64,000 nucleotides of DNA from Clostridia bacterium (GCA_017541305.1 JAFXZJ010000033.1:25978-89977); one strand, 5' to 3'; counted from the first letter of the stretch, positions 16,792 through 63,345 are shown. The notes: a model not told the origin generated them from the letters alone. Program-made: numbers and translations.

Positions 16792-16798
16792 TCCTGAT

Positions 16799-18163: not shown

Positions 18164-18230
18164 AAATCACTCTCACAAACGGGAACCGCCGTATAAACAG
18201 CGGCTCCCGCGTTAAATTCAGAGCAGGTAA

Positions 18231-20821: not shown

Positions 20822-20852
20822 AAATAAGATCCTCCGTGTGTGTATTTGTGGT

Positions 20853-22546: not shown

Positions 22547-22603
22547 ATAATACCTCCAAAAAATGTACTTAAGGAAGCCCGTTTTCAGGGCTTCCCATGC
22601 GGT

Positions 22604-23650
22604 TTACTTTTCTATATAGTCACGGAAGTCGCCCATGATGGCATGGGGAACGGGAAGATCGATCATGGTCTTAAGACCGGGCTTTGCGTTGATGACGTGG
22701 GGGATCATGTTAACGCACATGGCTATGGTGCCAAGGCCTCCTTCGACCTCGGGCATATTGGAAACGTGGATGGCGGGAGTGCCCTCGATCACGACGTAAT
22801 CGCCGGTGTGGGTGCCTTCCATTTCAGGCTCGATCTGCTGGGGATGGATGAGATCGATCTTCATTTTGCCGTCGACGTAAGCCTGAGCGGTCATATTAAC
22901 GCCGGCTACGTTGCCTGCGGCGGCAAAGCCGTAGGGAGCCTGACGGTCGACCTTGGTGACGATGGGAGCCATCTGCTTCTCGAACTTTTCTATCTTCCAG
23001 CCGAGAGCTTCGGCGATCATGCCTGCGCTCTCCTCAAAGCCAACGTGGCCTGCCAGAGTGCCGTCCTCAACGCCCTTGTTGAACTCTTCGACGGTGATGC
23101 CGATGCCCTGCTCCTTCATAACGGCGGGGCCGAAGGGGGAGAGGGAGTTGACACGCTTGCACATGACGGATTCGACGTCGATCATGCAGCCGGAAAGGCA
23201 GATCGCAAGAAGGTCCATCATAAGACCGGGATTGATGCCGGTGCCGAGAACGGATACGCCGTTCTCCTTGGCGATGCGGTCAAGCTCGGCAGCCAGCTCG
23301 GGATGCTGAGCCTTGGGATAAGCCATTTCCTCGGCGGTGGTGACAACGTTGATGCCGTTCTCAAGGACGAACTTGAGTTTGGGGAATACGGCGGGAACGA
23401 AGGAATCGGTGGCAACGATAGCTACATCGGCAGCGCCCTTATAGATGACGGTGTTGATATCGTTTGAAATAAGAACGTCCTTGCGGTCGCCCTTTTCGAT
23501 ACCGAGACGGTCGAATATGCTCATGCCGTTGAGCTTGTCCCACATATCGCATACGCCGGTGATCTCGACGCCCTTTTTGCCCAAGAGCATCCTTGCGATA
23601 CCGGAACCCATTGCGCCAAAGCCCCAAATGGCTACTCTAACATTTTCCAT
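22604..23650 (-). CDS. ord: 2,4-diaminopentanoate dehydrogenase
   Basis: Rossmann motif VAIWGFGAMGSG. ATG at 23650 follows GGAGGT; the ORF-track TTG at 23701 is an over-extension. First gene of the cluster. Confidence 0.8.
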   Translation of the reverse strand: MENVRVAIWGFGAMGSGIARMLLGKKGVEITGVCDMWDKLNGMSIFDRLGIEKGDRKDVLISNDINTVIYKGAADVAIVATDSFVPAVFPKLKFVLENGINVVTTAEEMAYPKAQHPELAAELDRIAKENGVSVLGTGINPGLMMDLLAICLSGCMIDVESVMCKRVNSLSPFGPAVMKEQGIGITVEEFNKGVEDGTLAGHVGFEESAGMIAEALGWKIEKFEKQMAPIVTKVDRQAPYGFAAAGNVAGVNMTAQAYVDGKMKIDLIHPQQIEPEMEGTHTGDYVVIEGTPAIHVSNMPEVEGGLGTIAMCVNMIPHVINAKPGLKTMIDLPVPHAIMGDFRDYIEK

Positions 23651-23884: not shown

Positions 23885-26284
23885 ATGAAAAGAAAGCTTT
23901 TTGCACTTGTACTCGCTTCGGTAATGCTCTTATCCGCGGTTCCCGCATTTCCCGCTTCAGCCGAGGTCGTTCCCGATGAATTGGGCAACGGCAGGCTGGT
24001 GCTGGATATGGATCCCGAAGGCGGCTATCAGGGCGATTACGTGCTTATCTACAATCCTTCGACAGGTTATTCGAACATGTCCACGGGCAACATGACGGGC
24101 CTGATCGAAACTTCGATCGACCCATATGCCAAGGGGGAGACCGCTGTATCCGATCCCGACGAGCTTTACAGGATCGACGTTGACGGCCTTATTGCCGCCA
24201 AGAACGCCGAAGCCGAGAAACCCGAGCCTCCCGCAGGCGAAAAGGCTTCTTACAACGTCGGCGATACAAAGAGCTTTTCCATCAGCAATTACAGCCCGGG
24301 TCCTTCCACGCTGACCTTCAAATGCGTTGCAAAGGGCGATCATTGCTACGTTTGGACTCCCGCACAGGATCTTACGAATTATTATGCCTTGGACGGGATC
24401 GATCCAACCTACCCTCAGCTTGCCTGCGATGAGTTCGAATCCAAATTCGAACAGATGCGCAGTTCCTTTGGCGAGCACGACAACGGTTCGCAGGGGGACG
24501 GGCGAGTCAACCTGATGTATTATAACATTGACGACGGCTTCCAGCCCGGATCCAGCACGGGATACGTTGCGGGTTATTTCAGCAGCATGGATTATTACAG
24601 CAACGGCCTGCCCATGATCCATATCGACACCTATCCCTGCGTTTATTACGTCAATACTCAGGGAGAGGAGATATACCGCCTGAGCAATTCTTTCAGCGTA
24701 TTCTGCCATGAATACCAGCATCTTATCAATTACTCAATAACCGGCGGTATGGATACCTGGCTCAACGAGGCGATGAGCGCTGCGGCGGAGGAGATATGCT
24801 ATCCGGGCTCGAGCGTCGTTTCGAGGATACAGAGCTGGGAGAACTACTACTATTCCGAAAATAACGATTGGCTCAATCCTCCTCACGAATTCGAATACAC
24901 CCCCGAATATGAACTGCATAACGGTTATTCTATGTACAGCTGGAGCAACAGCCTGTCATACGTGCTGCCGCTTTATTCTCAGGTGTGCTTATTCAGCCAA
25001 TACCTGTTCACGCATTACGGCAACGGGGTATTCAGGCAGATAACCGAGGCTTATTCCTCTGACGGCGCGGTTGGTGCGATAGGTTCCGTCACCGGCATGA
25101 ACACCTCGGAGCTCGTTAAGAATTTCAGGATCGCCGTTACCGCCAACGATCACGACTGCGAGGGCGGTCTGTACGGTTTCCTGCCGCAGGAAGGCTTCGA
25201 TCCCGAACAGTATCACGGCCTTGCTAACCCCTATCAGATACTCGGCCCCGTCGTTTATACGCATAACGTCTGCTCCTTAGAGGCCGGCGGCGCCATCACG
25301 GTCAAACCCATCGGCGGCTCGTACACGCCTCCCTCCGACGCGGCCTCCGGCCTTGTTTATATCGGTATCACAAGGAATATTGACACCGAGCCTATCGCGA
25401 TCGAGGGAATGACGCTCACTCCCGCACAAAGCGAGACCTACGTGGGTATGCAGACTTCCTTCCGCGTGGTAAGCGAGCCCGTCAACGCCAACGATTTTGA
25501 CGTGACGTGGACCATCTCCGATCCCGAAATTGCAAGCATCTCGGGCTCCGGCAGGACCGCTTACGCAACGGGACTTAACGCGGGCACAGCCGTTGTCACC
25601 GCAAACGCGGTCGACAGGACCACCGGCGCGTCCTTCACGGCGTCATCCGAACTGACGGTCAAAAGGATGCCCACGCTTGACGAAGCGCTTAACGTGCAGA
25701 ACGGCACGCTGACGTTCACGACGTCCGAAACAACTTATCCGTGGGCAGTCGATACCGATTATAACGGAAGGATCTGCGCCAATTCTACCAATGCAAAGGT
25801 TTCGGATTCTTCGTCTACCGTCCAGACAACTGTAAGGATGCAGGCGGGGGAGACGTTCACTTTCGATTGGTCCGTCAGCAGTGAAAGCAACTATGATAAG
25901 CTCACTTTCTATGCCAATAACGTTGAGGTCGCGAATATTTCGGGCGAAGTGAGCTTTACCACCTACACCTATACCGCTTCATCGGCGGGCAGCTTCACGT
26001 TCAAGTGGACTTATAAGAAGGATTATTCCGTCAACAGCGGCAGGGATACGGCCTGGCTGGACAACGTTTGTTACAGCGGAGATCCTGGACTTGATATCCT
26101 TATGGGCGACGTCAATTTCGATGGTGAGGTCAATTCCGAGGACGCCCTTCTGACGCTTCGCGCGGCGCTTGGCATAATCGAATTCACCGATGAACAGATG
26201 CTCAGAGGCGATATGAACGGCGACGGCGAGGTGCGTTCCGACGATGCGCTGATAATACTAAGGATATCGCTCGGAATACTGTAA
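23885..26284 (+). CDS. secreted multidomain zinc metalloprotease (gluzincin-like) with Ig-like domain, beta-sandwich domain and C-terminal type I dockerin
   Basis: Signal peptide MKRKLFALVLASVMLLSAVPAFPASA. HEYQH followed 18 aa later by NEAMS, giving thermolysin-like HExxH...NEAxS spacing. Big_2-like segment (VTWTISDPEIASISGSGRTAYATGLNAGTAVVTA). Two dockerin calcium-binding repeats: GDVNFDGEVNSEDA and GDMNGDGEVRSDDA. Confidence 0.8.
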   Translation: MKRKLFALVLASVMLLSAVPAFPASAEVVPDELGNGRLVLDMDPEGGYQGDYVLIYNPSTGYSNMSTGNMTGLIETSIDPYAKGETAVSDPDELYRIDVDGLIAAKNAEAEKPEPPAGEKASYNVGDTKSFSISNYSPGPSTLTFKCVAKGDHCYVWTPAQDLTNYYALDGIDPTYPQLACDEFESKFEQMRSSFGEHDNGSQGDGRVNLMYYNIDDGFQPGSSTGYVAGYFSSMDYYSNGLPMIHIDTYPCVYYVNTQGEEIYRLSNSFSVFCHEYQHLINYSITGGMDTWLNEAMSAAAEEICYPGSSVVSRIQSWENYYYSENNDWLNPPHEFEYTPEYELHNGYSMYSWSNSLSYVLPLYSQVCLFSQYLFTHYGNGVFRQITEAYSSDGAVGAIGSVTGMNTSELVKNFRIAVTANDHDCEGGLYGFLPQEGFDPEQYHGLANPYQILGPVVYTHNVCSLEAGGAITVKPIGGSYTPPSDAASGLVYIGITRNIDTEPIAIEGMTLTPAQSETYVGMQTSFRVVSEPVNANDFDVTWTISDPEIASISGSGRTAYATGLNAGTAVVTANAVDRTTGASFTASSELTVKRMPTLDEALNVQNGTLTFTTSETTYPWAVDTDYNGRICANSTNAKVSDSSSTVQTTVRMQAGETFTFDWSVSSESNYDKLTFYANNVEVANISGEVSFTTYTYTASSAGSFTFKWTYKKDYSVNSGRDTAWLDNVCYSGDPGLDILMGDVNFDGEVNSEDALLTLRAALGIIEFTDEQMLRGDMNGDGEVRSDDALIILRISLGIL

Positions 26285-27935: not shown

Positions 27936-29000
27936 TTATTCCTCGGGCTCCCTGTCATCACGCAGCTTTATCACCTCGGCAGCAAAGCGCCTGCGGTCCT
28001 CGCTCATCGCCGCGTAATGCTTTCTGGTCGTATTAACGTCCTTGTGTCCGAGCACGTCTGCAACAAGATAGATATCGCCCGTCTCGCGGTAAAGCATAGT
28101 GCCGTAAGTGCTGCGGAGTTTATGAGGGGAAATCTTTTTGAGAGGAGCGGCGATCTGAGCATATTTCTTTACCAGCACCTCCAAAGAACGCACGCTCATG
28201 CGCTTCTTCTGCATAGAGAGAAAGAGCGCCTTCTCGTGACCCTCGCAGGGGATGATGCTTTTGCGGTAGACCATGTATTCCGCAAGCGCACTGCGCACGT
28301 CGGAACCGAATACCAGCATTTCCTCGTTGCCGCCTTTGCGGGTGATCCTCACCTCGTTGGAATCGAAATTAAGGTCGTCCGTGTCGATGCCCACAAGCTC
28401 GCTTATACGCATGCCTGTGCCAAGGAATAATGTAATAATAGCTGTATCTCGTATCACGTTTTGGTTGTGATACTGTTTTTGCTTCTCGGAAAGCCCTTCG
28501 CCGCTTTCCACGGCTGAAAGAAGGCGCGATACTTCATCCGGCTCGAGACGGATTATGGGCTTTTCGTGAAGCTTGGGAGTATCGACAAGGGCGGGGGCGT
28601 TGTTTTTTATGCGCTCTTTTTTATACAAATACTTGAATAAAGCGCGTATCGCGGAAAGCTTTCGCGCTTTGGCCCGTTCGCCGTTCATCTTGAGCTCGGA
28701 AGCGTCGTCATCCTGATAAAGCGACACGTATTCGAGAAAGCATTCGATCGTTACGGAATCGATCTTTTCAAGCTCGGCGTATCCGATCTCGCGCATCGTT
28801 TTCAAACCGCTGCAGATATCCGTATCGAGCAGATAAGTAAAGAATGTTTTCAGATCGACCGCATAACCGTAGCGCGTCATTATGCCGGTGGTAAGCTCGA
28901 TACCGCGGAAGAAATCCGTGCAGCATTTGGGCAGCTCCGAAACGAGCTCACGCAGCTTAAAAGTGTATTTTTGGGTCTTTTCAACGGAATATTCGCTCAT
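27936..29000 (-). CDS. tyrosine site-specific recombinase, XerS/XerC-like (354 aa)
   Basis: Catalytic residues in GMRISEL (Arg), HKLRST (His-x-x-Arg) and LGHKDVNTTRKHY (His, Tyr). AAGGAGG 8 nt upstream of the ATG. Confidence 0.88.
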   Translation of the reverse strand: MSEYSVEKTQKYTFKLRELVSELPKCCTDFFRGIELTTGIMTRYGYAVDLKTFFTYLLDTDICSGLKTMREIGYAELEKIDSVTIECFLEYVSLYQDDDASELKMNGERAKARKLSAIRALFKYLYKKERIKNNAPALVDTPKLHEKPIIRLEPDEVSRLLSAVESGEGLSEKQKQYHNQNVIRDTAIITLFLGTGMRISELVGIDTDDLNFDSNEVRITRKGGNEEMLVFGSDVRSALAEYMVYRKSIIPCEGHEKALFLSMQKKRMSVRSLEVLVKKYAQIAAPLKKISPHKLRSTYGTMLYRETGDIYLVADVLGHKDVNTTRKHYAAMSEDRRRFAAEVIKLRDDREPEE

Positions 29001-29034
29001 AGGGGAAGCCTCCTTGATTTGACCATATTATAAC

Positions 29035-29072
29035 ACAACATTGCGTTAAAGACAAGTTTAACGCAATGTTGT
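29035..29072. repeat. perfect 16-bp inverted repeat with 6-bp asymmetric spacer
   Basis: ACAACATTGCGTTAAA-GACAAG-TTTAACGCAATGTTGT, read directly. On the minus strand it overlaps a TTGTCT-17-TGtTATAAT promoter of the recombinase gene. No U-tract follows it. Confidence 0.9.
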
Positions 29073-29093
29073 AAAGGCATTTTCTTAAATATA

Positions 29094-29573
29094 TTATGAA
29101 ACGGGCTCTTCCGGAGCGTTTTCGGCATCAAGCTGCTTTTTCAGCTTTTTGATCTCGGAGCGCGCAAGCTGATCGCAGCGATTGTTTAATTCGTTATCCG
29201 CGTGGCCTTTGACGTGATGCCATGTAACTTTATGCGTTCGCGTAAGCTTTAGCATCCGTTCCCAGAGATCCTTGTTCTCAACCGGTTTTTTATCGGATTT
29301 TTTCCAATCGTTCCTTAACCAATTGAATATCCATCCGTTACTGTACGTATTGCACAGATATGAGCTGTCCGTATAAAGCTCAACTTCACAAGGCTCACGC
29401 AGTGCTTCAAGCGCTTTGATCGCCGCAGTGATCTCCATACGGTTATTTGTGGTTTCAAGTTCGCCGCCGGAGATCTCTTTTTTTACGTTCTTGTAGATCA
29501 ACACGGCTGCCCAGCCGCCTATGCCGGGATTCACCGAGCATGCGCCGTCGGTGTAAACGGTTACCTTCTTCAT
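29094..29573 (-). CDS. rnhA: ribonuclease HI
   Basis: Catalytic residues in YTDGAC, NNRMEITA, YTDSSY and GHADNELNNRCDQLA. Confidence 0.9.
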   Translation of the reverse strand: MKKVTVYTDGACSVNPGIGGWAAVLIYKNVKKEISGGELETTNNRMEITAAIKALEALREPCEVELYTDSSYLCNTYSNGWIFNWLRNDWKKSDKKPVENKDLWERMLKLTRTHKVTWHHVKGHADNELNNRCDQLARSEIKKLKKQLDAENAPEEPVS

Positions 29574-30330: not shown

Positions 30331-33155
<2,825 letters not shown>

Positions 33156-33159
<4 letters not shown>

Positions 33160-35177
33160 TTTCTGGTCCTTTGTTTAGCTTTTTTCCTGCTGCCAACCGT
33201 GCCGGGCGCGGGCTTTTGAGAACCGTCCGTCTCCTTGCCCTGCAGCCTGTAAAGCTCGTCGCGCAGTTTTGCCGCTTGCTCGAACTCAAGCTCGAGTGCC
33301 GCCTGCTTCATCTGCTCGGTGATTATCGCTATACGCTCCTCAAGCTCGGCGGAAGGCACGGTGGACGCGTTCTTGGCTTTGGAGCTGATCTCTATCACGT
33401 CATGCACGGCCTTTTTTATGCTCTGAGGAGTGATGCCGTGCTCTTCGTTGTATTTCATCTGTATCTCGCGGCGGCGGTTCGTCTCGGTGATAGCGCGGTC
33501 CATGGAATCTGTTATGGAATCCGCATACATTATCACCCTGCCGTCAACGTTTCGAGCCGCCCTGCCCACCGTCTGCACGAGCGACGTGGTGGATCTGAGG
33601 AAGCCCTCTTTATCGGCGTCGAGTATAGCCACAAGGCCTACCTCGGGAAGATCGAGGCCTTCTCTTAAAAGATTGATACCGACGAGCACGTCGAATTCGC
33701 CCAGGCGCAGATCGCGTATTATTTCCATTCGCTCGATCGTTTCGACGTCGGAATGCATATAGCGCACCTTCACGCCGAAGCCTTCAAGGTATTCAGTGAG
33801 CATTTCGGCCATGCGTTTTGTGAGAGTGGTGACAAGCGTGCGATAGCCCTTCTGAGCGGTCAGGCGTATCTCGCCAAGCAGATCGTCCACCTGGCCTTCA
33901 ACGGGCCTTATCTCAATATAAGGATCCACAAGCCCAGTGGGCCTTATGATCTGTTCCGCTACCTGAGAAGCCCTTGAGAGCTCGTATTCGGCGGGAGTGG
34001 CGCTGACGCATATGAGCTGGCCTATGCGCTGTTCGAATTCATCAAACGTCAGCGGGCGGTTATCATAGGCCGAAGGAATGCGGAAGCCGTATTCCACAAG
34101 CTCCGTCTTCCTTGAAAGATCGCCCCGGTACATAGCCCTTATCTGAGGCAGCGTGACGTGGGATTCGTCGATTATGGTAAGGAAACCCTTGGGGAAATAA
34201 TCGATCAGTGTGAAAGGAGGCTGCCCGGGCTTTCTGCCGTCGAAATAGCGGGAATAGTTCTCTATGCCCTGGCAATAGCCTATTTCGCGCATCATCTCCA
34301 TATCGAAAGTGGTGCGCTGCTCTATCCTTTGAGCCTCAAGCAGCTTGTTCTGCGCCTTGAACTCGTCAACGCGCTTCATCATGTCCTGCTTTATTTCCTC
34401 AAGCGCGGCTTCGGTCTTTTCCTGATCGGCGGCATAATGCGTCGCGGGGAATATTATGACGTGAGCAAGCGTCCTTACCGGAACGCCGTTCACAACGGTT
34501 ATCTCGGATATGTTCTCTATCTCGTCGCCAAAGAGCTCGATGCGGTAGGCGCGCTCCTTCTCGTTCATCGGAAACACTTCGATAACGTCGCCCTTGACGC
34601 GAAATGTGCCGCGTGAGAAATCAAGCTCGTTCCGCTGATACTGCATCTCAACAAGCTTTCGAAGGAAAGCGTCTCGGTCGATCTGCATTCCTATGCGAAG
34701 CGATATGCTCATGCGCAGGTATTCTTCGGGATCGCCGAGAGCGTAAATGCACGAAACCGACGCGACTATTATAACGTCCTTCCGTTCGTTAAGAGCACAG
34801 GTGGCGCTGTGACGAAGGCGATCGATCTCCTCGTTTATGGAGGAATCCTTCTCTATGTACGTATCGGTCGAAGGAATGTAGGCCTCGGGCTGATAGTAAT
34901 CATAGTAGCTGACGAAATACTCTACGGCAGAATCGGGAAAGAACTCCTTAAGCTCGGAGCAGAGCTGTGCCGCAAGAGTCTTGTTGTGTGCGATAACAAG
35001 CGTGGGCCTCTGCACCTTTTCGATAACCTTTGCCATAGTAAACGTCTTGCCCGAGCCGGTAACGCCCAAAAGCACCTGCAGCCGGTCGCCTCTTTCAACG
35101 CCCTCCGCAAGTTTCTCTATCGCCTGAGGCTGATCGCCCGTCGGTTCAAACGGCGATACCGTTTTGAATACGTCCAT
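33156..35177 (-). CDS. uvrB: excinuclease ABC subunit B
   Basis: [12 protein letters not shown] and C-terminal UVR motif. ATG at 35177 has better SD spacing (9 nt after AGGAG) than the listed ATG at 35183. Stop overlaps the uvrA start. Confidence 0.97.
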
Positions 35178-35325
35178 TATCATTTGCTCCTATATGATCT
35201 CATTTTACATTATACCACTGAAACGCTTCGAATAAAAGGATTATTTTGCTTTTAAGGCATAATAAAGAACGGAGCCTCCTTATCAGGAAGCCCCGACGGC
35301 AATGCCTATTATGCTTTGATCGTGA

Positions 35326-42341: not shown

Positions 42342-45300
42342 TCAGAATGAAAAGCTTATCTGATCGGTATCGGGCAGCTCGTCGAAGCAGCCGAGAGCCG
42401 ACAGTTTTTCCATTATCGCGGTATTCGCTTTTGTGCGGATAGCGAAATCCTCCTTTGAAGAATACTCGCCGTCCTTCGCGCCGTTCTCGATCTGCACGGC
42501 AACGTTTTCGCCAAGGCCCGCAACGGATGTAAAAGGCGGTCTTATTTTGCCGTCCTCTATCACAAACGTTTTTGCCCTGGACTTGTAGATATCCACAGGC
42601 AGGAGTTCAAATCCGCGAAGATTCATTTCCGCTACGACTTCGAGTATGATTATCGCGTCCTTCTCCTTCTGATCCGGTTTATCCTTGGACTTGAGCAGCT
42701 TCAGATTGGCCATTACCGCATCAAGGCCTCCGTAGCAAAGCTGAATATCGAACGTGTCCGCTCTGACGGTGAAATAGACCGAATAGAATTCGAGAGGATA
42801 ATGCACCTTGTAGTATGCCACGCGAAAGCTCATCATGACGTAAGCCGCCGCGTGTGCCCGCGGGAACATGTATTTTATCTTTTTACAGCTGTCGATGAAC
42901 CATTCCGGCACGTTTATCTTTCGCATGGCCTCCTCCATCTCTTCCTTGAGGCCCCTGCCTTTACGAACCGACTCCATCGTTTTGAACGAAAGGGACGGAT
43001 CGCCGCCGACCGATATCAGGTAGTTCATGATATCGTCGCGGGTGCAGATCACTTCCATGAGGGTAGCCACGCCTTTTTCAACAAGCACCTGCGCGTTATT
43101 GTTCCACACGTCGGTGCCGTGCGAAAGGCCGGAGATCCTTACAAGCTCCTCCATCGTGGTCGGACGCGTCTCAACAAGCATGCCGCGAACGAACTGAGTG
43201 CCGAATTCGGGGATCGCAAGCGAGCCCACGTCGCATCCCAGCGGCTCAAGGCTGACCTTAAGCGCTCTATCCGTCGAATAGATCGACATTGTTTCGGGAT
43301 CGTCCAGCGGTATCGAGCGCGGATCGAGGCCCGTTATATCGTGCAGCATACGCAGCACTGTGGGATCGTCGTGTCCGAGTATGTCGAGCTTGACCAGCTT
43401 GTCATCCAGTGCGTGGAAATCGAAGTGGGTAGTCACGGAGCCTGCGTCGTTCTTATCCGCGGGATGCTGTACGGGGCAGAAATCGAATATCTCATAATCC
43501 TCGGGAACTATGACGATACCGCCGGGATGCTGGCCGGAAGTCTTTTTAACGCCCAAACAGCCCTGTACAAGCCGGTTTATCTCCGCTTCGGACTTGTTGA
43601 GTCCCAGATCCTCGCAGTAGTGCTTGACGTATCCGTAAACCGTTTTATCCTGCACGCCCGATATTGTGCCCGCTCGGAATGCGTGACCCTTGCCGAACAT
43701 CTCCTCCGTGAAATGATGGGCAACAGGCTGATAATCGCCCGAGAAGTTCAGGTCGATATCGGGCGTCTTGTCGCCCTTGAAGCCCAGGAAGACCTCGAAC
43801 GGGATATCGTATCCCTCCTTCCTGAGCCTGGCTCCGCATACGGGACATTCCTTGTCGGGCAGGTCGATGCCGCAGCGGGAATGAGAATCGAGCACGAACT
43901 CGGAATATTTGCAGTTGGGGCAAAGGTAATGCGGCGGAAGCGCGTTGACCTCGGTAATGCCAAGCATCGTCGCGACGAAAGACGAGCCGACGGAACCTCG
44001 CGAGCCAACCAGATAACCGTCCGAAAGCGATTTCGAAACGAGCTTCTGAGCGACCATATAGAGCGATGAATAGCCGTTGCCGACTATGGATTTGAGCTCC
44101 TTATCAAGCCTCGCCTGCACTATTTCGGGCAGAGGATCGCCATAGCGCCTGTGCGCCTCGGTCATGGTCATATCCTGCAGTATCTCCTTGGCATTGGGAA
44201 GCTCGGGAGAATAGGTGAATTTTTCATCGAGGAAGGGATGCAGCTGTTCGCCGCAGCGGTCGGCGATGATATTGGGGTTGGTTATCACTATCTCTCGCGC
44301 TCTCTCTTCGCCGAGATATGAGAACTCCTCAAGCATTTCATCCGTAGTGCGGAAGAACAGCGGCGTCATACGAGTGGCGTCCTTAAAGCCCTGTGAATGG
44401 AGCAGTATCGAACGGAATATCGCGTCGTCGGGATCGAGGAAATGCACGTCGCAGGTGGCGACGGTCAGCTTTCCGAGCTCGTCTCCTATTTCGACCACGC
44501 GCCTGTTGTATCCGCGAAGATCTTCGATAGTCCAGTTATGCTCCTCGGATTCGGTCATGAACATATTGTTGTCCATCGGCTGTATCTCAAGGTAATCATA
44601 CCACGAGGCGATGCGCTTCTGCTCATCCTCGGGCTTGCCGCGGCTGATCGATCTGTACAGCTCGCCCGCTTCGCAGGCCGAGCCCAAAAGTATTCCGCTG
44701 CGGAGCATGTTGAGCAGGCTCCTGGGTATGCAGGGACGCTTGTGAAAATACTGGAGATGCGAATACGATACAAGCTTGTAAAGGTTCTTCAGGCCGGGAA
44801 GCGAGGCGGCCAAAAGAATTATATGGTAGCGCTGGAGCTTTTTGAAATCCGGCGAATAACGGTTCCAGTATGATACGATCTCGTCGCCTCTTTCCTTAAG
44901 CTCCGCATGCGTATTCATAAAGAAATCCTTTATGAAACGGGCGTTTTCCACGGCGGGACGAACGGGCGCCGATTCGTATCTGCCGCTTATGGGACAGCAG
45001 CCGCTCTCCATGCTGTAATCCTTTATATCAAGATGCGCGTTCAGATCGAGCTTGTTTATATCGATGTATTCTTTGGGGAAGCTTTCCTCGTTGTCAAGCG
45101 CCGAGGCAAGCGCGTTCATCACGTTCTCATTGAATGCCGCGAAAACCGATCCCTCGGCAAACCTCATCAGCGATTTAACGGCTTCGTTCAGATCGGGGGC
45201 GTCCTCGCGCTCCGCTTCGTCAATGCCGCAATCCTCACGGGCCCATGCGGGAAGATTCGCCCCGGAATTCACGAGGGTGTAAAAACTGCCGACGGTATTT

Positions 45301-46613
45301 CCCGAAAAGTCGAATCTCTCGGCCGCGATATCAAAGACCGACGCGCCGGCGGGTGAATATGAAGCGGTTATCGCGAGCGCGGTATAATCGCTTTCATCCG
45401 GCTTATGGTCGGTCGAATCGTTTATAAGGTATCCCTCGCAGCCGAATATGACCTTGATATTGTTCTTTTTGGCGGCTCGCATGGCTTCGGGCAGGGAATG
45501 CACCACGCCGTGATCGGTTATGGCTATCGCCCTGTGCCCCCAACGCGCGGCAGTGGCTATGACCTCGTCCACCTTAGTGAGCGCGTCCATGGTCGATGAC
45601 TGCGTATGCAGATGAAGCTCAACTCTTTTTTCGCCTTCGGGCGCTGAATCCATTCGCTTTTCGCACTTGCGCCTTACTATATCGTTCGCAAGGAACACGT
45701 AGTCCCTTGAATAGGTATCGTATTCGTAATTTCCGCGAACAAGCACAAGATCGCCCGCTTTTATCACGTCGTTGAGCTTTTCCACCACCTCATCGGCTTT
45801 TTCGGCCTTGGGGAAGAGCTTGACCGTGAGCGAATTGGTCTTGTCAGAGAATATGAACTTGATAATGGTGCGCAGCTTGTTCCTTGTCTCCGTGACCTCC
45901 ATTGAAAGTATCGAGCCAAGCGCGCAAGCGTTCCCGGTCTCCTCGCCAAAGGAGCTCATGGGAGTTATCTCGGCCCTTGAGATATCCTTGCCATAGACGA
46001 TATCCGCATTGTCGGAAACGGTCTTAGCGGGCTTTGACTTGACGTGCGCTTCCGGCCTGGGTTCCGTGCGGCGAGTAAAGCCGAGCCTTGAAGAATATCC
46101 CGACATATCGACGGGCTTGAATTCCTTCAGACAGTCGTCTTCGACTACCCTTACCGCAAAATTCCACCCCCAAAGCTTTGCGGCCTCGGCGCGGAAGGAG
46201 TTTACAAGCTCCTTTGTCAGCGCGTGCTTGACTATCGGCATAGCTTTGATGGTAAACTCCATGCCCCCTTCCTCGTTCACATAGAGGCGTATGACCGAAT
46301 TTGCAAGGACGGGATAGATCTCGGGATCTAGCTGGCCCCAGCTCTTGATCACGAACGAGCATACCTCGTCGGGGAAGGACGAAAGCTCCGCGAGCGCGTC
46401 CCCGAAATCGAATTCGAAATCCACCCTTTCGGTATCCAGCTTATGACAAATAAGCCGCTTTACGGAATCTATCTCATAGGGAAGCAGCATTTCATCAACG
46501 TGTATGGCAACGTTAAACACGCCCGTCGCTTTTGAAACGGACGCGTTTTTTATTGAGAACGCCGCTCTTTTGAACAGCTCCTCGCCAAGAGCCAGTTGTT
46601 CCTTGCCGCTCAT
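42342..46613 (-). CDS. polC: DNA polymerase III alpha subunit, PolC type
   Basis: 1423 aa. PHP motif ELHLHTQSS, zinc finger CPNCKYSEF...CPVCG, conserved polymerase core. See the findings for the atypical exonuclease insert. Confidence 0.97.
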   Translation of the reverse strand: MSGKEQLALGEELFKRAAFSIKNASVSKATGVFNVAIHVDEMLLPYEIDSVKRLICHKLDTERVDFEFDFGDALAELSSFPDEVCSFVIKSWGQLDPEIYPVLANSVIRLYVNEEGGMEFTIKAMPIVKHALTKELVNSFRAEAAKLWGWNFAVRVVEDDCLKEFKPVDMSGYSSRLGFTRRTEPRPEAHVKSKPAKTVSDNADIVYGKDISRAEITPMSSFGEETGNACALGSILSMEVTETRNKLRTIIKFIFSDKTNSLTVKLFPKAEKADEVVEKLNDVIKAGDLVLVRGNYEYDTYSRDYVFLANDIVRRKCEKRMDSAPEGEKRVELHLHTQSSTMDALTKVDEVIATAARWGHRAIAITDHGVVHSLPEAMRAAKKNNIKVIFGCEGYLINDSTDHKPDESDYTALAITASYSPAGASVFDIAAERFDFSGNTVGSFYTLVNSGANLPAWAREDCGIDEAEREDAPDLNEAVKSLMRFAEGSVFAAFNENVMNALASALDNEESFPKEYIDINKLDLNAHLDIKDYSMESGCCPISGRYESAPVRPAVENARFIKDFFMNTHAELKERGDEIVSYWNRYSPDFKKLQRYHIILLAASLPGLKNLYKLVSYSHLQYFHKRPCIPRSLLNMLRSGILLGSACEAGELYRSISRGKPEDEQKRIASWYDYLEIQPMDNNMFMTESEEHNWTIEDLRGYNRRVVEIGDELGKLTVATCDVHFLDPDDAIFRSILLHSQGFKDATRMTPLFFRTTDEMLEEFSYLGEERAREIVITNPNIIADRCGEQLHPFLDEKFTYSPELPNAKEILQDMTMTEAHRRYGDPLPEIVQARLDKELKSIVGNGYSSLYMVAQKLVSKSLSDGYLVGSRGSVGSSFVATMLGITEVNALPPHYLCPNCKYSEFVLDSHSRCGIDLPDKECPVCGARLRKEGYDIPFEVFLGFKGDKTPDIDLNFSGDYQPVAHHFTEEMFGKGHAFRAGTISGVQDKTVYGYVKHYCEDLGLNKSEAEINRLVQGCLGVKKTSGQHPGGIVIVPEDYEIFDFCPVQHPADKNDAGSVTTHFDFHALDDKLVKLDILGHDDPTVLRMLHDITGLDPRSIPLDDPETMSIYSTDRALKVSLEPLGCDVGSLAIPEFGTQFVRGMLVETRPTTMEELVRISGLSHGTDVWNNNAQVLVEKGVATLMEVICTRDDIMNYLISVGGDPSLSFKTMESVRKGRGLKEEMEEAMRKINVPEWFIDSCKKIKYMFPRAHAAAYVMMSFRVAYYKVHYPLEFYSVYFTVRADTFDIQLCYGGLDAVMANLKLLKSKDKPDQKEKDAIIILEVVAEMNLRGFELLPVDIYKSRAKTFVIEDGKIRPPFTSVAGLGENVAVQIENGAKDGEYSSKEDFAIRTKANTAIMEKLSALGCFDELPDTDQISFSF

Positions 46614-47653
46614 TCGAGCTCCTTCCTGATATCCGCGATAAATCGGTCTATAACGCCGGGAAGCTTGTCCGAATACAGAAGCTCGCCCTTTTTGAATACT
46701 ACGGCGTTGATGCTGCCGAAGGCTATGCCGATATCGGCCTCCCTTGCCTCGCCGGGGCCGTTGACCGCACAGCCCATAACCGCGACCTTCAATGGCTTGT
46801 TCGCATTGGGCAGGGACGCTTCCACCTTTTCCACTATCGATTTAAGATCCACCCTCGTTCTGCCGCAGGTGGGACAGCTGACTATCTCGACTCCCTCACT
46901 CCTTGCGCCCGCCGCCGAAAGGATCCGCTTTGCGGCATAAACCTCCTGCACGGGATCGCCCGTCATGGAAACCCTTACGGTATCTCCTATGCCGTCCACG
47001 AGCAGCGAGCCGATTCCAATTGCCGATTTTACGAGCGCGGCTTCGCCCATGCCCGCCTCGGTAACGCCAAGAAGCAAAGGATAAGGCGACCTTTCGCGCG
47101 CCGTTCTGTATGCCTCGACGGTCTTTTTTACAGTGGAGGCCTTGAGCGAAAGCACTATATCGTAAAATCCGCAGCGCTCAAGTATAGCCGCGTGAGAAAG
47201 CGCGCTTTCAACCATTCCTTCCGCCGTAACGCCGTACTTTGCCAGAATGTCCTTTTCAAGCGAACCGCCGTTTACGCCTATCCTTATGGGTATCCCCCTG
47301 TCCTTGGCGCAGGCGACGAGCTCGCGCACCTTAGCTTCGGAGCCTATATTTCCGGGATTGATCCTGACCTTGTCGACGCCGTTTTCAATTGCGGCTATCG
47401 CAAGCCTGTGATCGAAATGGATATCGGCAACGAGCGGGATATGCGTAAGCGCCTTGATACGCGGTATTGCCGCGGCGCAGTCCTCGTCATAGACCGAAAA
47501 GCGCACTATCTCACACCCCGCCTCCTCAAGGCGGAGTATCTGTGCGGCTGTGGCCTCGGCGTCCCTCGTGTCCGTATTGGTCATGGACTGAATGGTGACG
47601 GGATGACCGCCGCCGATATAGATATCGCGTATTTTTATGGCTTTTGATCTCAT
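46610..47653 (-). CDS. ispG: 4-hydroxy-3-methylbut-2-en-1-yl diphosphate synthase
   Basis: Fe-S ligand motifs SCPTCGR and GCAVNGPGE. Stop overlaps the polC start (ATGA). Confidence 0.93.
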   Translation of the reverse strand: MRSKAIKIRDIYIGGGHPVTIQSMTNTDTRDAEATAAQILRLEEAGCEIVRFSVYDEDCAAAIPRIKALTHIPLVADIHFDHRLAIAAIENGVDKVRINPGNIGSEAKVRELVACAKDRGIPIRIGVNGGSLEKDILAKYGVTAEGMVESALSHAAILERCGFYDIVLSLKASTVKKTVEAYRTARERSPYPLLLGVTEAGMGEAALVKSAIGIGSLLVDGIGDTVRVSMTGDPVQEVYAAKRILSAAGARSEGVEIVSCPTCGRTRVDLKSIVEKVEASLPNANKPLKVAVMGCAVNGPGEAREADIGIAFGSINAVVFKKGELLYSDKLPGVIDRFIADIRKELE

Positions 47654-47663
47654 ATCACACCTG

Positions 47664-48776
47664 TCAGAAATTGAATACTCCGTCGATCAGGCCCCTTATA
47701 TCGCCTATGGTCGCATAGATCATCAGCGCGATCAAAAGGCCGAAGCCTATAACGCTTAAAGCGTTCTGAATCTTCCTCGGGACCGGCTTGCGGAAAATCA
47801 GCTCTATAAAATCAAAGAGAAGATGACCGCCGTCCAGCGGGAGCAAAGGAAGCAGATTCATTATGCCAAGGCTCATAGATACGATTATCATTACGAGCAG
47901 AATGTATCTGAAGCCGCGCGAAGCCATGCTCATCGTGATCGCCACTGTGCCCACTATGCCCGTAACGTCGCCCTGATTGAAGCCGTTGCGGATGCCGTTA
48001 ATAAGGGCTTCGAACGTTGCTTTGACTATATACACAAGGAATTCGCCCGCCTGACCGAAGGCCTCGAAAAAGCCTACGGGTGCGTCGACTTGACGCAGGC
48101 CCATGGTGATGCCCAGCACGTTCTTTTGCTTTGCTTCGTTATAGATATTCGAAACGAAAAGCTCCTTGAGCTCGCCTTCGCGAAGCACCGTTATGCTTAC
48201 ACCGTCGGCGGATGCGTCGTCGATAGCCTTGGAGATTATCTCGGTCTTCTCATCGAAGGTGTGGGGAACGTCGGATACGTCGTGCCCGTCGACCGATACG
48301 ATAACGTCATAGAGCTCCATGCCGCAGTCCTGTGCACGGCTCTCTTCGGCGAAACCGTTTATGACCACGCCGTAATCGCCGTTGTCATAGGTGACGATCT
48401 TCTGATCGCCGAAGCACACAAGCATCACGACGGCAAGCACGTAAGCCAGTACGAAGTTCATGAACGGACCGGCAAAAACGACTATCAGCCTTTTCCACGG
48501 CTTTTGTGAATTGAAGGGTATCGCATCCTCTCCGCCGGGGAGCTCCTTCGGATCGTCATCCTCGCCGTAAAAGCGGCACGCGCCGCCAAGCGGTATGGCG
48601 CGCAGAGCATAATTTATACCCTTTTTCTTGAACTGGAAAAGCGCAGGGCCGAAGCCGAGTGAAAAATCGAGTATCCTGAACCCAAGCAGCCTGCCGGCAG
48701 TGTAATGCCCAAGCTCATGTACGAATATCATGATCGCAAGCACCAGCAGCGCGATCAGAAAATATAGAACTTCCAT
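47664..48776 (-). CDS. rseP: RIP metalloprotease RseP/RasP (M50 site-2 protease)
   Basis: HELGHY zinc motif, central PDZ-like region, NLLPLLPLDGGH motif. Confidence 0.9.
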   Translation of the reverse strand: MEVLYFLIALLVLAIMIFVHELGHYTAGRLLGFRILDFSLGFGPALFQFKKKGINYALRAIPLGGACRFYGEDDDPKELPGGEDAIPFNSQKPWKRLIVVFAGPFMNFVLAYVLAVVMLVCFGDQKIVTYDNGDYGVVINGFAEESRAQDCGMELYDVIVSVDGHDVSDVPHTFDEKTEIISKAIDDASADGVSITVLREGELKELFVSNIYNEAKQKNVLGITMGLRQVDAPVGFFEAFGQAGEFLVYIVKATFEALINGIRNGFNQGDVTGIVGTVAITMSMASRGFRYILLVMIIVSMSLGIMNLLPLLPLDGGHLLFDFIELIFRKPVPRKIQNALSVIGFGLLIALMIYATIGDIRGLIDGVFNF

Positions 48777-49925
48777 TTATAACCTCTTGGATCTGTATTC
48801 GCGGGCAAGCCTTCGGGCCTGCGCGTCACAGTAAAGCAGCTCATCCATGCTGCCGATATTCATTTTATCGATATTTGTCAATGCGTATTCAACGCAGTCG
48901 GCGATCTCGGTGAATTTAAGCTCGCCGCTGATAAAGCGTTCGACCGCCGCCTCGTTGCCTGAATTATATGCGACCGGCTTAGATCCCCCGCAGGACAGTG
49001 CATAGTAAGCCATGGGCAGCGCGCGGAATCTTGCGGTATCGGGTTCATAGAACGTAAGCCCCGAAAGCGAAGCAAGATCCAACGGTTTTACAGGACATTC
49101 GATCCTGTCGGGATAGGTAAGCGCATATTGTATCGCAAGCCGCATATCGGGCACGGAAAGCTGTGCGATAACGGAATTATCAGTGAATTCCACCATCGAA
49201 TGCACTATCGACTGCGGATGTATCAGAACGGATATGTCGGAAGGCCCGGCGTCGAAAAGGAACGCCGCCTCCATCACCTCAAGTCCCTTATTGAAAAGTG
49301 TAGCGGAATCGATGGTTATTTTTCGTCCCATGCTCCAATTTGGATGCTTCATTGCCATTTCGGGCGTAACGGACCCAAGCTCGCTCTCGGGCAGATCGCG
49401 GAACGCGCCTCCCGAAGCGGTGAGTATGAGCCTTTTAACGTCGCGTCTTTTGCCGGATGCGAGCGACTGAAATATCGCGCTCTGCTCGCTGTCAACGGGC
49501 AGTATGCGTCCGCCGCCGGATCTCATGGCCTTCCTGACGAGCTCTCCCGCACAGACTACGCTCTCCTTGTTGGCGAGCGCAACTGTCTTTCCGGCCTGCA
49601 GAGCGCTTATCAGCGGGAAAACTCCGTTGAAGCCCGATACGCCGTTGACGACGGCGTCTATTTCATCCCGGGCGGCAATATCCCAAACGGCTTTGCCGGA
49701 TATGACTTCGGCGCCGGGAAATGCCTCCCTTACGATCTCGTAAGCCCGCTGATCGAATACGCCCACGATACGGGGCGCGAACTGCTTTATCTGCGATATG
49801 CCCAGCTCATAGTTTGCACTGAATACCAGCGCGTAAACCGAAAACTCATCGGTATGCGCAGAGCATACCGAGAGCGTCTGTCTTCCTATTGAACCTGTCG
49901 AGCCGAAAACGGCCAGTCTTTTCAT
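48777..49925 (-). CDS. dxr: 1-deoxy-D-xylulose 5-phosphate reductoisomerase
   Basis: GSTGSIG NADPH motif, LANKES, NWSMG. Confidence 0.93.
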   Translation of the reverse strand: MKRLAVFGSTGSIGRQTLSVCSAHTDEFSVYALVFSANYELGISQIKQFAPRIVGVFDQRAYEIVREAFPGAEVISGKAVWDIAARDEIDAVVNGVSGFNGVFPLISALQAGKTVALANKESVVCAGELVRKAMRSGGGRILPVDSEQSAIFQSLASGKRRDVKRLILTASGGAFRDLPESELGSVTPEMAMKHPNWSMGRKITIDSATLFNKGLEVMEAAFLFDAGPSDISVLIHPQSIVHSMVEFTDNSVIAQLSVPDMRLAIQYALTYPDRIECPVKPLDLASLSGLTFYEPDTARFRALPMAYYALSCGGSKPVAYNSGNEAAVERFISGELKFTEIADCVEYALTNIDKMNIGSMDELLYCDAQARRLAREYRSKRL

Positions 49926-49933
49926 ATGAAAAC

Positions 49934-50755
49934 CTATTTAATGAAGTAATGGAACGCAGCGGCGACTATAGGCGCAAACATCATCGCGCTGTCGAGTCTG
50001 TCGACCACGCCGCCGTGCTTGGGAAGCAGAGTGCCGAAATCCTTGATACCCGACCAACGCTTGAAGGTCGAAGCAAAAAGGTCGCCGAACTGACCTATGA
50101 ATCCGCCGATCAGGCCCAGGCCGACAAGCCAAGCCCAGTGCACGTCAAGCCCCCAGAGCTTCTGAAGGAACCAGACGAGCAGGCCGCCTATGGGGCCTCC
50201 GACAAGACCGGCAATATAGCCTTCTACCGTCTTGTTGGGGCTTATAGTCGGACACAGCTTATGCCTGCCGAACTTCCTTCCGAAGAGATAGGCGTTGTTA
50301 TCGGCAAGGCAGGGCGCGGCGAATACGAGCAGCAGCGCAGTCCTCGAAACGTCGGCACGACCGAATCCGAAAAAGCCGAAGCAAAGCAGCAGCGCGAGCG
50401 GATAGATCATAACGAACAGACTTGCCACGGCGTCCTCGCTCGTGCGTTTTCCGTTCAGGATCCTCTCTATTGCGATATAGAGGAAGCATAGGGCATAAAG
50501 CGCGGGAAGCAGCTGAACGAAGCCGTAAGCCTCGTTAAGATACAGCATCACGTACTGCAGCCCTGCCATGGCAAACAGAGGCGGAAGACAAATCTTGATC
50601 CCCTTATGACGGAACATGCGGCTCATTTCGATTACCGCAAGCACCGATATGAGCGTCAGCGCTCCTACCTGGAACCAGCCGCCAAGCCATACTATCAGTA
50701 CGAGCAGGGCTATAAGGCCTATCGCAACGAGCGTTCTTACCGCAAGCTCGCTCAT
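49934..50755 (-). CDS. cdsA: phosphatidate cytidylyltransferase
   Basis: Polytopic membrane protein with C-terminal signature SxFKRxxGxKDxGxxxPGHGGxxDRxD (STFKRWSGIKDFGTLLPKHGGVVDRLD). Confidence 0.88.
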   Translation of the reverse strand: MSELAVRTLVAIGLIALLVLIVWLGGWFQVGALTLISVLAVIEMSRMFRHKGIKICLPPLFAMAGLQYVMLYLNEAYGFVQLLPALYALCFLYIAIERILNGKRTSEDAVASLFVMIYPLALLLCFGFFGFGRADVSRTALLLVFAAPCLADNNAYLFGRKFGRHKLCPTISPNKTVEGYIAGLVGGPIGGLLVWFLQKLWGLDVHWAWLVGLGLIGGFIGQFGDLFASTFKRWSGIKDFGTLLPKHGGVVDRLDSAMMFAPIVAAAFHYFIK

Positions 50756-50756
50756 A

Positions 50757-51503
50757 TCATTCGACCACCTTTCCGAAACGCCTGGTGCGCTTCATGAATT
50801 CGATCAGGCATCTTCTGTATTCTTCGGGATCGAAATCCGGCCATAGAACGTTTGTGAAAACAAATTCGGCATATGCCGCCTGCCAGAGCATGAAGTTTGA
50901 CAGTCTCTGCTCCCCTGCCGTCCTTATCACAAGATCCAGCTCGGGCAGCCCGGCAGTATAGAGATTATCCGAAATGAGCTTCTCGTCTATCTTTTCGGGA
51001 TCGACGCCGGAGGCGGAAACGTTTTTCACCGCCCTTAAGATCTCGCTCCTGCCGCCGTAATTCAGCGCGATGCAGAAGCGAAGGCCGTCATTGTCCTTGG
51101 TCCTCTCCATGGCTTTGTTCATGGCGTTTTTGACTTTTTCGGGCATGGGAGAAAGATCGCCGAGCACTATTATCTTCACCTTGTTTGCGTTAAGCTCGTC
51201 GATCTCCTTCTCGAAATATTCCGTGAGCAGTGAGAAAAGCGCATTGATCTCCTGCATCGGCCTCTTCCAGTTTTCGGTTGAGAACGCGTAAACGGAAAGC
51301 GCTTTTATGCCAAGTCTGTGTGATTCGCGCACGATCACGTGCAGCGCCTCCATTCCCGCCCTGTGGCCAACGGGGCGCGGCATAAGACGCTTTGTCGCCC
51401 ATCTGCCGTTGCCGTCCATAATAATGCCGACGTGCTGCGGGAGCGTGCCCTTCAGGCCGAAATCGGCCATTTCCTTATCGGAATAGCGATCATAGATCTT
51501 CAT
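50757..51503 (-). CDS. uppS: isoprenyl transferase (undecaprenyl diphosphate synthase)
   Basis: HVGIIMDGNGRWA and RTAGEQRLSNFMLWQ motifs. ATG at 51503; the listed upstream start is a TTG extension. Confidence 0.9.
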   Translation of the reverse strand: MKIYDRYSDKEMADFGLKGTLPQHVGIIMDGNGRWATKRLMPRPVGHRAGMEALHVIVRESHRLGIKALSVYAFSTENWKRPMQEINALFSLLTEYFEKEIDELNANKVKIIVLGDLSPMPEKVKNAMNKAMERTKDNDGLRFCIALNYGGRSEILRAVKNVSASGVDPEKIDEKLISDNLYTAGLPELDLVIRTAGEQRLSNFMLWQAAYAEFVFTNVLWPDFDPEEYRRCLIEFMKRTRRFGKVVE

Positions 51504-51729
51504 AAGCAAAAGCTTCTCCTGAACCTTGAGTGGAAACCGTCGTTTTAAAAACCGAGTACGCAAGGTAAACGGTATTTTCCGATTCGACCAAGCGTACCCG
51601 TATTACTCGTTTGTCGTCCCCGTCGGGCACGCCCTTTTTTGAGCGCACCTCACAGGAAACGGTCTTGTAGCCCTCGGCGCGGAGGATATCCTCGGCAGCC
51701 GAGAGCGCAAATCCGCGGACGTCCGTCAA
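51490..51729 (-). CDS. possible small protein (79 aa) between frr and uppS
   Basis: Open frame with high GC3 in its first ~45 codons. TTG start overlaps the frr stop (TTGA) and its stop overlaps the uppS start. No ATG and a weak SD. Alternating pattern vaguely PASTA-like. Low confidence. Confidence 0.3.
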
Positions 51730-62520: not shown

Positions 62521-63345
62521 ATGGGTATAATACTGGGCATTGACGTCGGCGGTTCCACAACAAAGATCGTCGGTATGCGCGCTGACCGCACGCTCATTTC
62601 CACAATGATGGTCAAGGCATACGATCAGCTCACCTCCCTTTACGGAGCGCTAGGCAATTTCATGGATACAAACCGTCTGCCTCTGTCGGACGTTGAACGG
62701 ATTTATATAACGGGCGTCGGCAGCTCTTATCTCAACGGTGATATTTACGGCATACCCACTCATCGTGTGGAGGAATTCTCCGCAATAGGTAAAGGCGGTC
62801 TTTGGCTTTCCGGTCTTGAGCAGGCGATCGTGATAAGCATGGGCACCGGCACAGCCTTCGTGCAGGCGGATAATAACGGCTACACGCATATAGGCGGCAG
62901 CGGCGTTGGCGGCGGCACGCTTCTTGGGCTTGGCTGCAGGCTCACGAGTGCGGACGGATTCGACTCTCTTTGCAGACTTGCCGATTCGGGCAGTCTAAAA
63001 AACGTCGACCTCACCATCGGCGCGATCTCAAAACAGAACATATCCACTCTTAATTCCGAGATAACCGCGGCTAACTTCGCCAATCTAAACAGCCTGACGA
63101 CCGAAAACGATATTGCGCTCGGTCTTGTGAACATGGTTTTGCAGACGATATTCACGCTCGGCGTATTTGCGGCCCGGGCGACCTCCATCCCCGACGGTCC
63201 GATTATCCTCATAGGCTCGCTGACCGATCTTAAGCAGATCGACTCGACCCGCAAGGCCTTCTCCGCGCTCTATCCCAACAAGTTTATTCTTCCTCCCCAC
63301 GCGGCATTTGCAACCGCGATAGGCGCGGCGCTGCACGGATGCTGA
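62521..63345 (+). CDS. coaW: type II pantothenate kinase-like (BadF/BadG/BcrA/BcrD ATPase fold)
   Basis: N-terminal phosphate-1 motif GIDVGGSTTKIVG, and GGSGVGGGTLLGL. 274 aa, similar in size to staphylococcal CoaW. Confidence 0.7.
   Translation: MGIILGIDVGGSTTKIVGMRADRTLISTMMVKAYDQLTSLYGALGNFMDTNRLPLSDVERIYITGVGSSYLNGDIYGIPTHRVEEFSAIGKGGLWLSGLEQAIVISMGTGTAFVQADNNGYTHIGGSGVGGGTLLGLGCRLTSADGFDSLCRLADSGSLKNVDLTIGAISKQNISTLNSEITAANFANLNSLTTENDIALGLVNMVLQTIFTLGVFAARATSIPDGPIILIGSLTDLKQIDSTRKAFSALYPNKFILPPHAAFATAIGAALHGC

Follow-up and report, generated by a model that had tools for sequence, protein, structure and literature searches.

A clostridial PolC that retains its DnaQ-type exonuclease domain without the catalytic residues, beside an intact PHP site

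The 64,000-nucleotide stretch of DNA analysed here (the window; Clostridia bacterium, GCA_017541305.1, JAFXZJ010000033.1:25978-89977) carries on its minus strand a complete polC gene, encoding the alpha subunit of a PolC-type DNA polymerase III. PolC, an antibiotic target, is the replicase that textbooks cite in bacteria for its built-in DnaQ proofreader. In the PolC of the window, the DnaQ-type 3'-5' exonuclease domain is still inserted in the PHP domain, but all five of its catalytic residues have been replaced. The insert retains its fold, as predicted from structure models, and is under purifying selection; the PHP and polymerase sites are intact, and the dead catalytic site is found throughout a clade of related PolCs. 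An original prediction, made from the sequence alone, had placed this loss at positions 44829-45389, a span that corresponds to amino acids (aa) ~409-595 and lies between the PHP ligands E393 and H597. The gene and its upstream neighbours are arranged as follows, in window coordinates.

46610..51563, minus strand: upstream neighbours uppS, cdsA, dxr, rseP and ispG, assigned by Pfam, which mark the orthologous polC locus
42342..46613, minus strand: polC, PolC-type DNA polymerase III alpha subunit; open reading frame (ORF) of 4272 nucleotides, 1423 aa, full length, no frameshift
45435..45629, minus strand: N-terminal part of the PHP domain, aa 329-393, with ligands H334, H336, D343, H368 and E393
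44826..45434, minus strand: pseudo-exonuclease insert, a DnaQ fold (predicted) inside the PHP domain, aa 394-596, with none of the five DEDDh residues
45357..45386, minus strand: ExoI remnant YTALAITASY, aa 410-419; Asp replaced by A414 (45372-45374), Glu by T416 (45366-45368)
45117..45143, minus strand: ExoII remnant FAAFNENVM, aa 491-499; His replaced by F494, Asp by M499 (45117-45119)
44970..45035, minus strand: loop aa 527-548, LDIKDYSMESGCCPISGRYESA (KDYSMESGCxPIxGRYE), from the conservation profile
44943..44960, minus strand: ExoIII remnant RPAVEN, aa 552-557; His replaced by R552, Asp by N557
44244..44825, minus strand: C-terminal part of the PHP domain, aa 597-790, with ligands H597, C647, D722 and H724
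43365..43763, minus strand: polymerase active site, PDIDLNF (D952, D954; 43743-43763) and LDILGHDD (D1077; 43365-43388)
42345..42362, minus strand: C-terminal QISFSF, where PolCs have their beta-clamp-binding motif

Judged from its sequence, the protein is an orthologous, polymerase-competent PolC by every criterion except an active exonuclease. It matches the NCBIfam PolC equivalog NF001688 with 1487 bits (cutoff 873) and TIGR01405 with 1346 bits (cutoff 1043). The Pfam domains consist of a split PHP (332-673), DNA_pol3_alpha, the finger and HHH_6, and they follow the order of a PolC: OB, PHP split by the insert, Pol3 core, finger and HhH. The solved PolCs 3f2b and 9qpc align with it end to end. 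The polymerase aspartate triad reads D-D-D in 182 of the 183 PolCs compared, the window protein included, and the Zn-finger cysteines are intact. At the C-terminal position occupied by QISFSF, published PolCs have the motifs QITFF and QLSFF (supplement of PMC3919608). An identical protein occurs in an independent record (MBR6109195.1, 'MAG: Clostridia bacterium', where MAG stands for metagenome-assembled genome), and the nearest species-level genomes are rumen MAGs of sheep, goat and buffalo. The gene order uppS-cdsA-dxr-rseP-ispG-polC is also present at the polC loci of relatives (L008, L009 and L012).

The register of the insert was obtained from three alignments: phmmer against the full-length E. 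faecium PolC (9qpc), MAFFT on 120 and then 183 PolCs, and a hidden Markov model (HMM) built solely from 34 canonical PolC exonuclease domains. This exo HMM matches the whole window PolC with an E value of 1.5e-8, in the same register as MAFFT and phmmer. The five DEDDh positions are occupied by A414, T416, M499, R552 and N557, residues that were confirmed on the window translation. In the canonical PolCs of the comparison set, the same columns read D-E-D-H-D in 74 of 74 cases, so the substitutions are not due to chance. The by-eye reading of ExoI (Asp to Ala414, Glu to Thr416) and of ExoII (His to Phe, here F494, and Asp to Met499) is borne out by the three concordant alignments, its register and residue numbers both being correct. 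The ExoIII context, which had been described as devoid of H-x4-D, carries R552 and N557 in place of His and Asp.

The decay extends to the detection of the domain: Pfam RNase_T (PF00929) gives no match to the window PolC even at E<=1, and the NCBIfam DEDD-exonuclease models match aa ~417-497 weakly (E 8e-7 to 1e-3), far under their cutoffs. The engineered D431A+E433A, which alters both ExoI positions, is the standard exonuclease-null form of E. faecium PolC (PMC12592400). The window PolC has Ala and Thr at both ExoI positions and has in addition lost the remaining three catalytic residues. On this reading of its residues, the insert is a structural, not a functional, member of the DEDDh superfamily. 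That the dead state is an artefact, be it of a wrong by-eye register, of sequencing or assembly, or of a pseudogene, is given almost no credence. One register is returned by three alignment methods, the ORF is intact at 1423 aa, and strong purifying selection acts over the whole gene; the identical protein in independent records, together with 107 other clusters (90% identity) that bring the dead state to 108, shows that the assembly is not at fault.

Orthologs from related Clostridia, proposed at the outset as a check, show the substitutions to be lineage-wide. Among the 120 best database homologs of the window PolC, 85 have inserts without the catalytic residues, 34 are canonical and one, P0094, has the insert deleted. 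A second search, seeded with a 55%-identical 'Christensenellaceae' MAG protein, enlarges the set to 183 PolCs, which divide into 108 dead, 74 canonical and 1 with the insert deleted. None of the five residues is kept in 92 of the 108 dead PolCs and one of the five in 15, the last sequence (P0093) being alignment-dependent. In this very divergent protein the catalytic columns read SVY-S or DEDQS depending on the alignment, and its partial DEDDh retention is not relied on.

Neighbour-joining trees were built on the PHP domain and the polymerase core. In the first set, 84 of the 85 dead PolCs fall in one pure clade; in the larger set, dead groups of 63 and 38 sequences are adjacent, with a few stragglers, and a canonical group of 19 lies nearby. 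With 108 of 183 PolCs dead and adjacent on the tree, the loss of the DnaQ site appears ancient and lineage-wide in uncultured gut and rumen Clostridia, having taken place once or a few times. The names attached to the dead sequences are all those of MAGs (Clostridia, Clostridiales, Eubacteriales and Christensenellaceae bacterium, Clostridium sp., Candidatus Pelethousia sp.), with no cultured member of the clade among them. In public metagenomes some dead-PolC clusters reach very high abundance (5171 and 2537 member sequences).

The deleted form is represented by P0094 (1241 aa; NSW92325.1, MAG Firmicutes bacterium), in which a 23-residue linker replaces the exonuclease insert and the PHP pattern HHDHEHCDH is intact. 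Its position among canonical Clostridia PolCs on the tree shows that the insert was lost there independently, by deletion, as in the Acidaminococcus PolCs already published.

Outside the catalytic positions, the domain is retained and not deleted, in agreement with the original prediction, as supported by homology, length, predicted fold and purifying selection. The insert measures 188-210 aa in dead homologs and 203-212 aa in canonical PolCs; in the window PolC, 203 residues separate E393 and H597. An exhaustive search with a profile of 38 dead inserts reaches the exonuclease domains of canonical PolCs at ~1e-25. Its best 150 matches mix fragments, dead inserts and canonical exonuclease domains at similar scores, and confirm the homology. 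A word-index search with the insert as protein query (44826-45425, minus strand) gave 263 candidates, none of them significant. This null is likely a sensitivity gap for a fast-evolving segment, given that the full-length query finds >99% identical proteins in the same database.

The AlphaFold2 model of the PHP domain with its insert, computed from a dead-clade-only alignment, has a mean predicted local distance difference test score (pLDDT) of 91.4, with 94-98 over most of the insert. The insert alone, modelled from 38 dead sequences, reaches 89.4. In a Foldseek search of the PDB with the insert model, the top 50 matches are all DEDD nucleases, the first being the exonuclease domain of E. faecium PolC 9qpc (template-modelling score TMq 0.68). 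Further matches include the DinG exonuclease, DnaQ domains, E. coli epsilon 2ido (TMt 0.66), the T. maritima PolC exonuclease 2p1j, RNase T and Orn. The insert is predicted from these models to keep the DnaQ (RNase H-like) fold.

Against the closest relative (86% identity overall), the approximate ratio of nonsynonymous to synonymous substitution rates (dN/dS) is 0.125 in the insert and 0.019 in the polymerase core, 0.012 in the N-terminal PHP part and 0.17 in the N-terminal domain; the polymerase core is 95% identical and the insert 73%. Towards relatives of 61-78% identity, the insert gives dN/dS values of 0.2-0.35 with synonymous sites saturated. At equal polymerase-core divergence, insert identity is 22-24% among dead PolCs versus 43-54% among canonical ones, and the dead inserts evolve about twice as fast. 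This pattern clearly points to relaxed but real purifying selection on the insert. The residues that are near-invariant across the clade (A431, G438, A472, A478, F485 and L522) are all small or hydrophobic, in keeping with upkeep of the fold rather than of a new catalytic site. A new active site within the insert was rejected, since conservation across the dead clade includes no polar residue. The loop at aa 527-548 behaves differently from this core: it is nearly invariant in the 32 closest relatives, has a pLDDT of 60-70 in both models, has no counterpart in canonical PolC and is absent from more distant dead PolCs. It may serve as an interaction motif particular to this lineage.

On both sides of the dead insert, the PHP site is complete. 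The nine metal ligands that had been read from the sequence are all present (H334, H336, D343, H368, E393, H597, C647, D722 and H724), and the pattern HHDHEHCDH (9/9) is found in every full-length dead, canonical and deleted PolC compared. D343 and D722 are the counterparts of D23 and D226 in M. tuberculosis DnaE1, where mutations of these residues are inactivating. PHP-type proofreading in M. tuberculosis DnaE1 and Thermus Pol III alpha was reportedly described by Rock et al. in 2015 and Stano et al. in 2006. The PHP domain is an active proofreader in these two enzymes, and the DnaQ domain of PolC is inserted in a loop that, in DnaE1, lines the groove to the PHP active site (PMC5636811). Clostridia that combine PolC with DnaE1 usually have three 'active' proofreaders, namely the PHP of PolC, the PHP of DnaE1 and the DnaQ of PolC; in Bacilli, the PHP site of PolC is often inactive (PMC12926913).

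With all five catalytic residues gone, error correction must come from elsewhere, and since no other nuclease site of the polypeptide is still intact, the PHP centre most likely proofreads in cis. The whole explanation, held with slightly more confidence than doubt, is that of a competent PolC replicase with a pseudo-enzyme DnaQ insert kept structurally and with PHP proofreading in cis. In the ancestral clostridial PolC, the redundancy of PHP and DnaQ would have let the DnaQ site decay. The insert would thereby have become a pseudo-enzyme, its fold kept and all five of the DEDDh metal and general-base residues replaced. Deep within a large clade of uncultured Clostridia from gut and rumen, this loss would have come about in a single event or a small number of them, and been stable ever since. 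The dead domain, for which we infer a structural or DNA-guiding role, would persist as a structural part, embedded in the PHP domain beside the PHP nuclease site. Proofreading in cis would fall to the PHP trinuclear metal centre, as it does in the DnaE1 of M. tuberculosis and the Pol III alpha of Thermus. A more specific version, possible but doubtful, is a proofreader switch within one polypeptide, in which PHP would be the sole cis proofreader and the dead DnaQ domain, retained for its place on the loop beside the PHP single-strand groove, would hold or guide the frayed primer 3' end into it. If true, this would be the first natural case of a PolC that proofreads with PHP, and a living intermediate between DnaQ-dependent and PHP-dependent replicases.

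Several points weigh against this explanation. Canonical clostridial PolCs keep the PHP ligands 9/9 too (74 of 74), which makes PHP integrity non-discriminating, and the dead clade shows no higher conservation of the PHP regions than canonical PolCs do. The literature search gave no report of exonuclease activity for any PolC PHP domain, and the PHP domain of G. kaustophilus PolC is reported to be inactive, though one ligand is mutated there (PMC5636811). The neighbour-joining tree, with the canonical group of 19 sequences beside the dead groups, cannot decide between one loss and several. Synonymous sites are near saturation (proportion of synonymous differences, pS, 0.6-0.7) even for the closest relative, and dN/dS is correspondingly approximate. 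It is possible, moreover, that a stand-alone DnaQ, a DinG-type exonuclease or the PHP of DnaE1 acts in trans from the genome beyond the window. Under this rather unlikely arrangement, a separate DnaQ-like exonuclease (epsilon-like or DinG-type) or the DnaE1 PHP would proofread for PolC, whose own PHP would be kept for structural or other reasons. There is a precedent in B. subtilis, where PolC corrects the errors of DnaE3 (cited in PMC12926913); bacterial proteomes average >3 stand-alone DnaQ homologs (PMC12926913), the DnaE1 of Clostridia combines a perfect PHP site with a conserved surface for epsilon binding (PMC3919608), and a PHP site that is equally complete in canonical PolCs need not signal a new role. 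Against a trans-acting proofreader stands the absence of any DnaQ-like gene from the 64-kb window (54 ORFs searched by the exo HMM, 51 by Pfam) and from ~9 kb past its 3' end, together a few percent of a genome. The only nuclease to emerge from the scan was RNase HI (29094-29573), which is not a proofreader.

PolC may also have ceased to be the bulk replicase, with DnaE1 and its own PHP replicating the chromosome and proofreading dispensable for a reduced or specialised PolC. Timinskas et al. raised this possibility for Clostridia with both PolC and DnaE1; exonuclease-less PolCs occur only in such Clostridia, and some Clostridia have DnaE1 alone (PMC3919608). In another uncultured lineage, syntenic polC has lost the polymerase aspartates and kept the exonuclease (P0172, P0239; described below), so that modules are expendable in some Clostridia. 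This arrangement is nevertheless quite improbable for the window PolC, where the polymerase core is the most constrained part (dN/dS 0.019; 95% identity versus 73% in the insert). The protein also keeps its catalytic triad, the Zn-finger cysteines, the PHP site and the C-terminal clamp-type motif intact, and locus and length are conserved over >100 clusters. A different question is why the dead domain stays. Instead of being a passive scaffold, the insert may have been kept for a new non-catalytic function, for example the binding of a replisome partner or of single-stranded DNA, a notion that is compatible with the best explanation and is itself judged unlikely. The purifying selection on the insert despite its dead active site speaks for it, as does the loop aa 527-548, near-invariant in the 32 nearest relatives, predicted to be flexible and without a canonical counterpart; a clamp-binding motif in the vestigial exonuclease domains of actinobacterial PolA2 provides a precedent (PMC12926913). 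The conserved loop is, however, confined to the near subclade, and across all dead inserts conservation is limited to small and hydrophobic core residues.

The window PolC is of the same family as the canonical PolCs of B. subtilis, G. kaustophilus (3F2B) and E. faecium (9QPC). It shares with them the domain order (N-terminal domain, OB, split PHP, Pol3 core, HhH), an insert of ~200 aa with the DnaQ fold, the polymerase triad, the Zn-finger cysteines, the C-terminal clamp-type motif and a locus after ispG. It differs from them in that its insert has all five DEDDh residues replaced, escapes detection by Pfam RNase_T and evolves about twice as fast; from many Bacilli PolCs it differs in its perfect 9/9 PHP site. 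In 2014, Timinskas et al. put the share of PolCs that 'lack the Exo insertion' at 6%, every one of them from Clostridia or Negativicutes (PMC3919608). PolCs without the exonuclease are found only in lineages with both PolC and DnaE1 and keep the PHP site 9/9, and two Acidaminococcus PolCs of 1191 and 1210 aa, also with PHP 9/9, are true deletions (PMC3919608). These 'Exo-less' PolCs, and P0094 with them, have likewise lost DnaQ proofreading in a Clostridia-type lineage with HHDHEHCDH intact. Their insert is physically absent and the protein ~200 aa shorter, whereas the window PolC retains a 203-aa domain, predicted to be folded and under selection. Some of the 'Exo-less' PolCs of 2014 may be retained, dead inserts that fell under the HMM threshold.

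M. tuberculosis DnaE1 and Thermus Pol III alpha have the same nine PHP ligands and no active DEDD exonuclease in cis. They belong to another polymerase group than PolC. In the window PolC, the PHP loop next to the active site bears an entire DnaQ domain that is dead. An inactivated 3'-5' exonuclease domain is retained by the eukaryotic polymerases Pol alpha and Pol zeta. Retained inactive domains of this kind are also present in Pol I of many Firmicutes and Actinobacteria and in the actinobacterial PolA2/APEX (PMC12926913). All these polymerases resemble the window PolC in a retained DnaQ-like fold with disrupted DEDD residues, presumably kept for structure or interactions, and differ from it in being A- or B-family enzymes. 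The principle of a retained dead exonuclease domain is already known from those families, and loss of the PolC exonuclease in Clostridia is known in the form of deletions. According to the latest complete-genome survey, PHP is what becomes inactivated in Pol III alpha subunits, and never DnaQ. The window PolC is the reverse of this pattern, with DnaQ retained but dead and PHP intact. No description of a retained but dead PolC exonuclease was found in the literature searched, where exonuclease deletions in PolC are described; the probable reason is that neither cultured members nor complete genomes of the clade were covered by the surveys.

The opposite decay is seen in two PolC homologs outside the window, P0172 and P0239 (loci L012 4311-8285 and L013 67-3804), which are among the matches of the dead-insert profile. 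Both keep ExoI (FDIETTG), ExoII (HNANFD) and ExoIII (HHRAxxDA). In P0172, the polymerase Asp triad has become A, T and S in the alignment, and the PHP ligands are lost as well; in P0239, the PDIDLNF motif is replaced, as read by eye. P0172 is located at a canonical cdsA-dxr-rseP-ispG-polC locus of a distant uncultured organism, whose IspG is 51% identical to that of the window. Together with the deletions, these mirror-image PolCs suggest an unusual lability of PolC modules in those Clostridia that possess DnaE1 as well.

A dead DnaQ domain beside a perfect PHP site, fixed in >100 gut and rumen metagenome clusters, sets a whole clade clearly apart from the textbook PolC architecture. It offers a natural system for the long-open question of whether a PolC PHP domain can proofread, and could show how replication fidelity survives the loss of the canonical proofreader and why the dead domain stays. 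For annotation, the label 'PolC-type DNA polymerase III' is no guarantee of an active exonuclease.

The rest of the window contains housekeeping genes: queA, tgt and tsaB for tRNA modification, alanine racemases, a family 4 uracil-DNA glycosylase and uvrAB, leuS, spoVT and an EF-G paralog. On the minus strand, 15718-20456 is occupied by a cluster around a B12 enzyme of the D-ornithine/D-lysine aminomutase type (18231-20456). It includes a mutase-associated protein of the 'MutL' family PF13941 (16799-18163), which is not the mismatch-repair MutL, and a second alanine-racemase-like protein of the pyridoxal phosphate-dependent type (15718-16791). The cluster suggests amino-acid fermentation. The ORFs at 20622-22031 and 22325-23467 have no Pfam match. 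They lie beside a gene on the plus strand (23885-26284) for a secreted 799-aa protein that carries a Big_2 domain and, at its C terminus, a type I dockerin, which fits a cellulosome-type system in a rumen organism.

Within 27936-29573 on the minus strand, a tyrosine recombinase/integrase (27936-29000) adjoins RNase HI (29094-29573) and a nitroreductase, upstream of uvrA/uvrB (30331-35183). This RNase HI is the sole RNase H-fold nuclease of the window besides the dead PolC insert. A different neighbourhood is found in a related strain (L010 1-9900), upstream of the homolog of the window gene at 62521-63345, which encodes an identical pantothenate-kinase-like protein. The region there comprises an integrase, many small ORFs and an MCM-family helicase, and looks like an integrated mobile element that is absent from the window.

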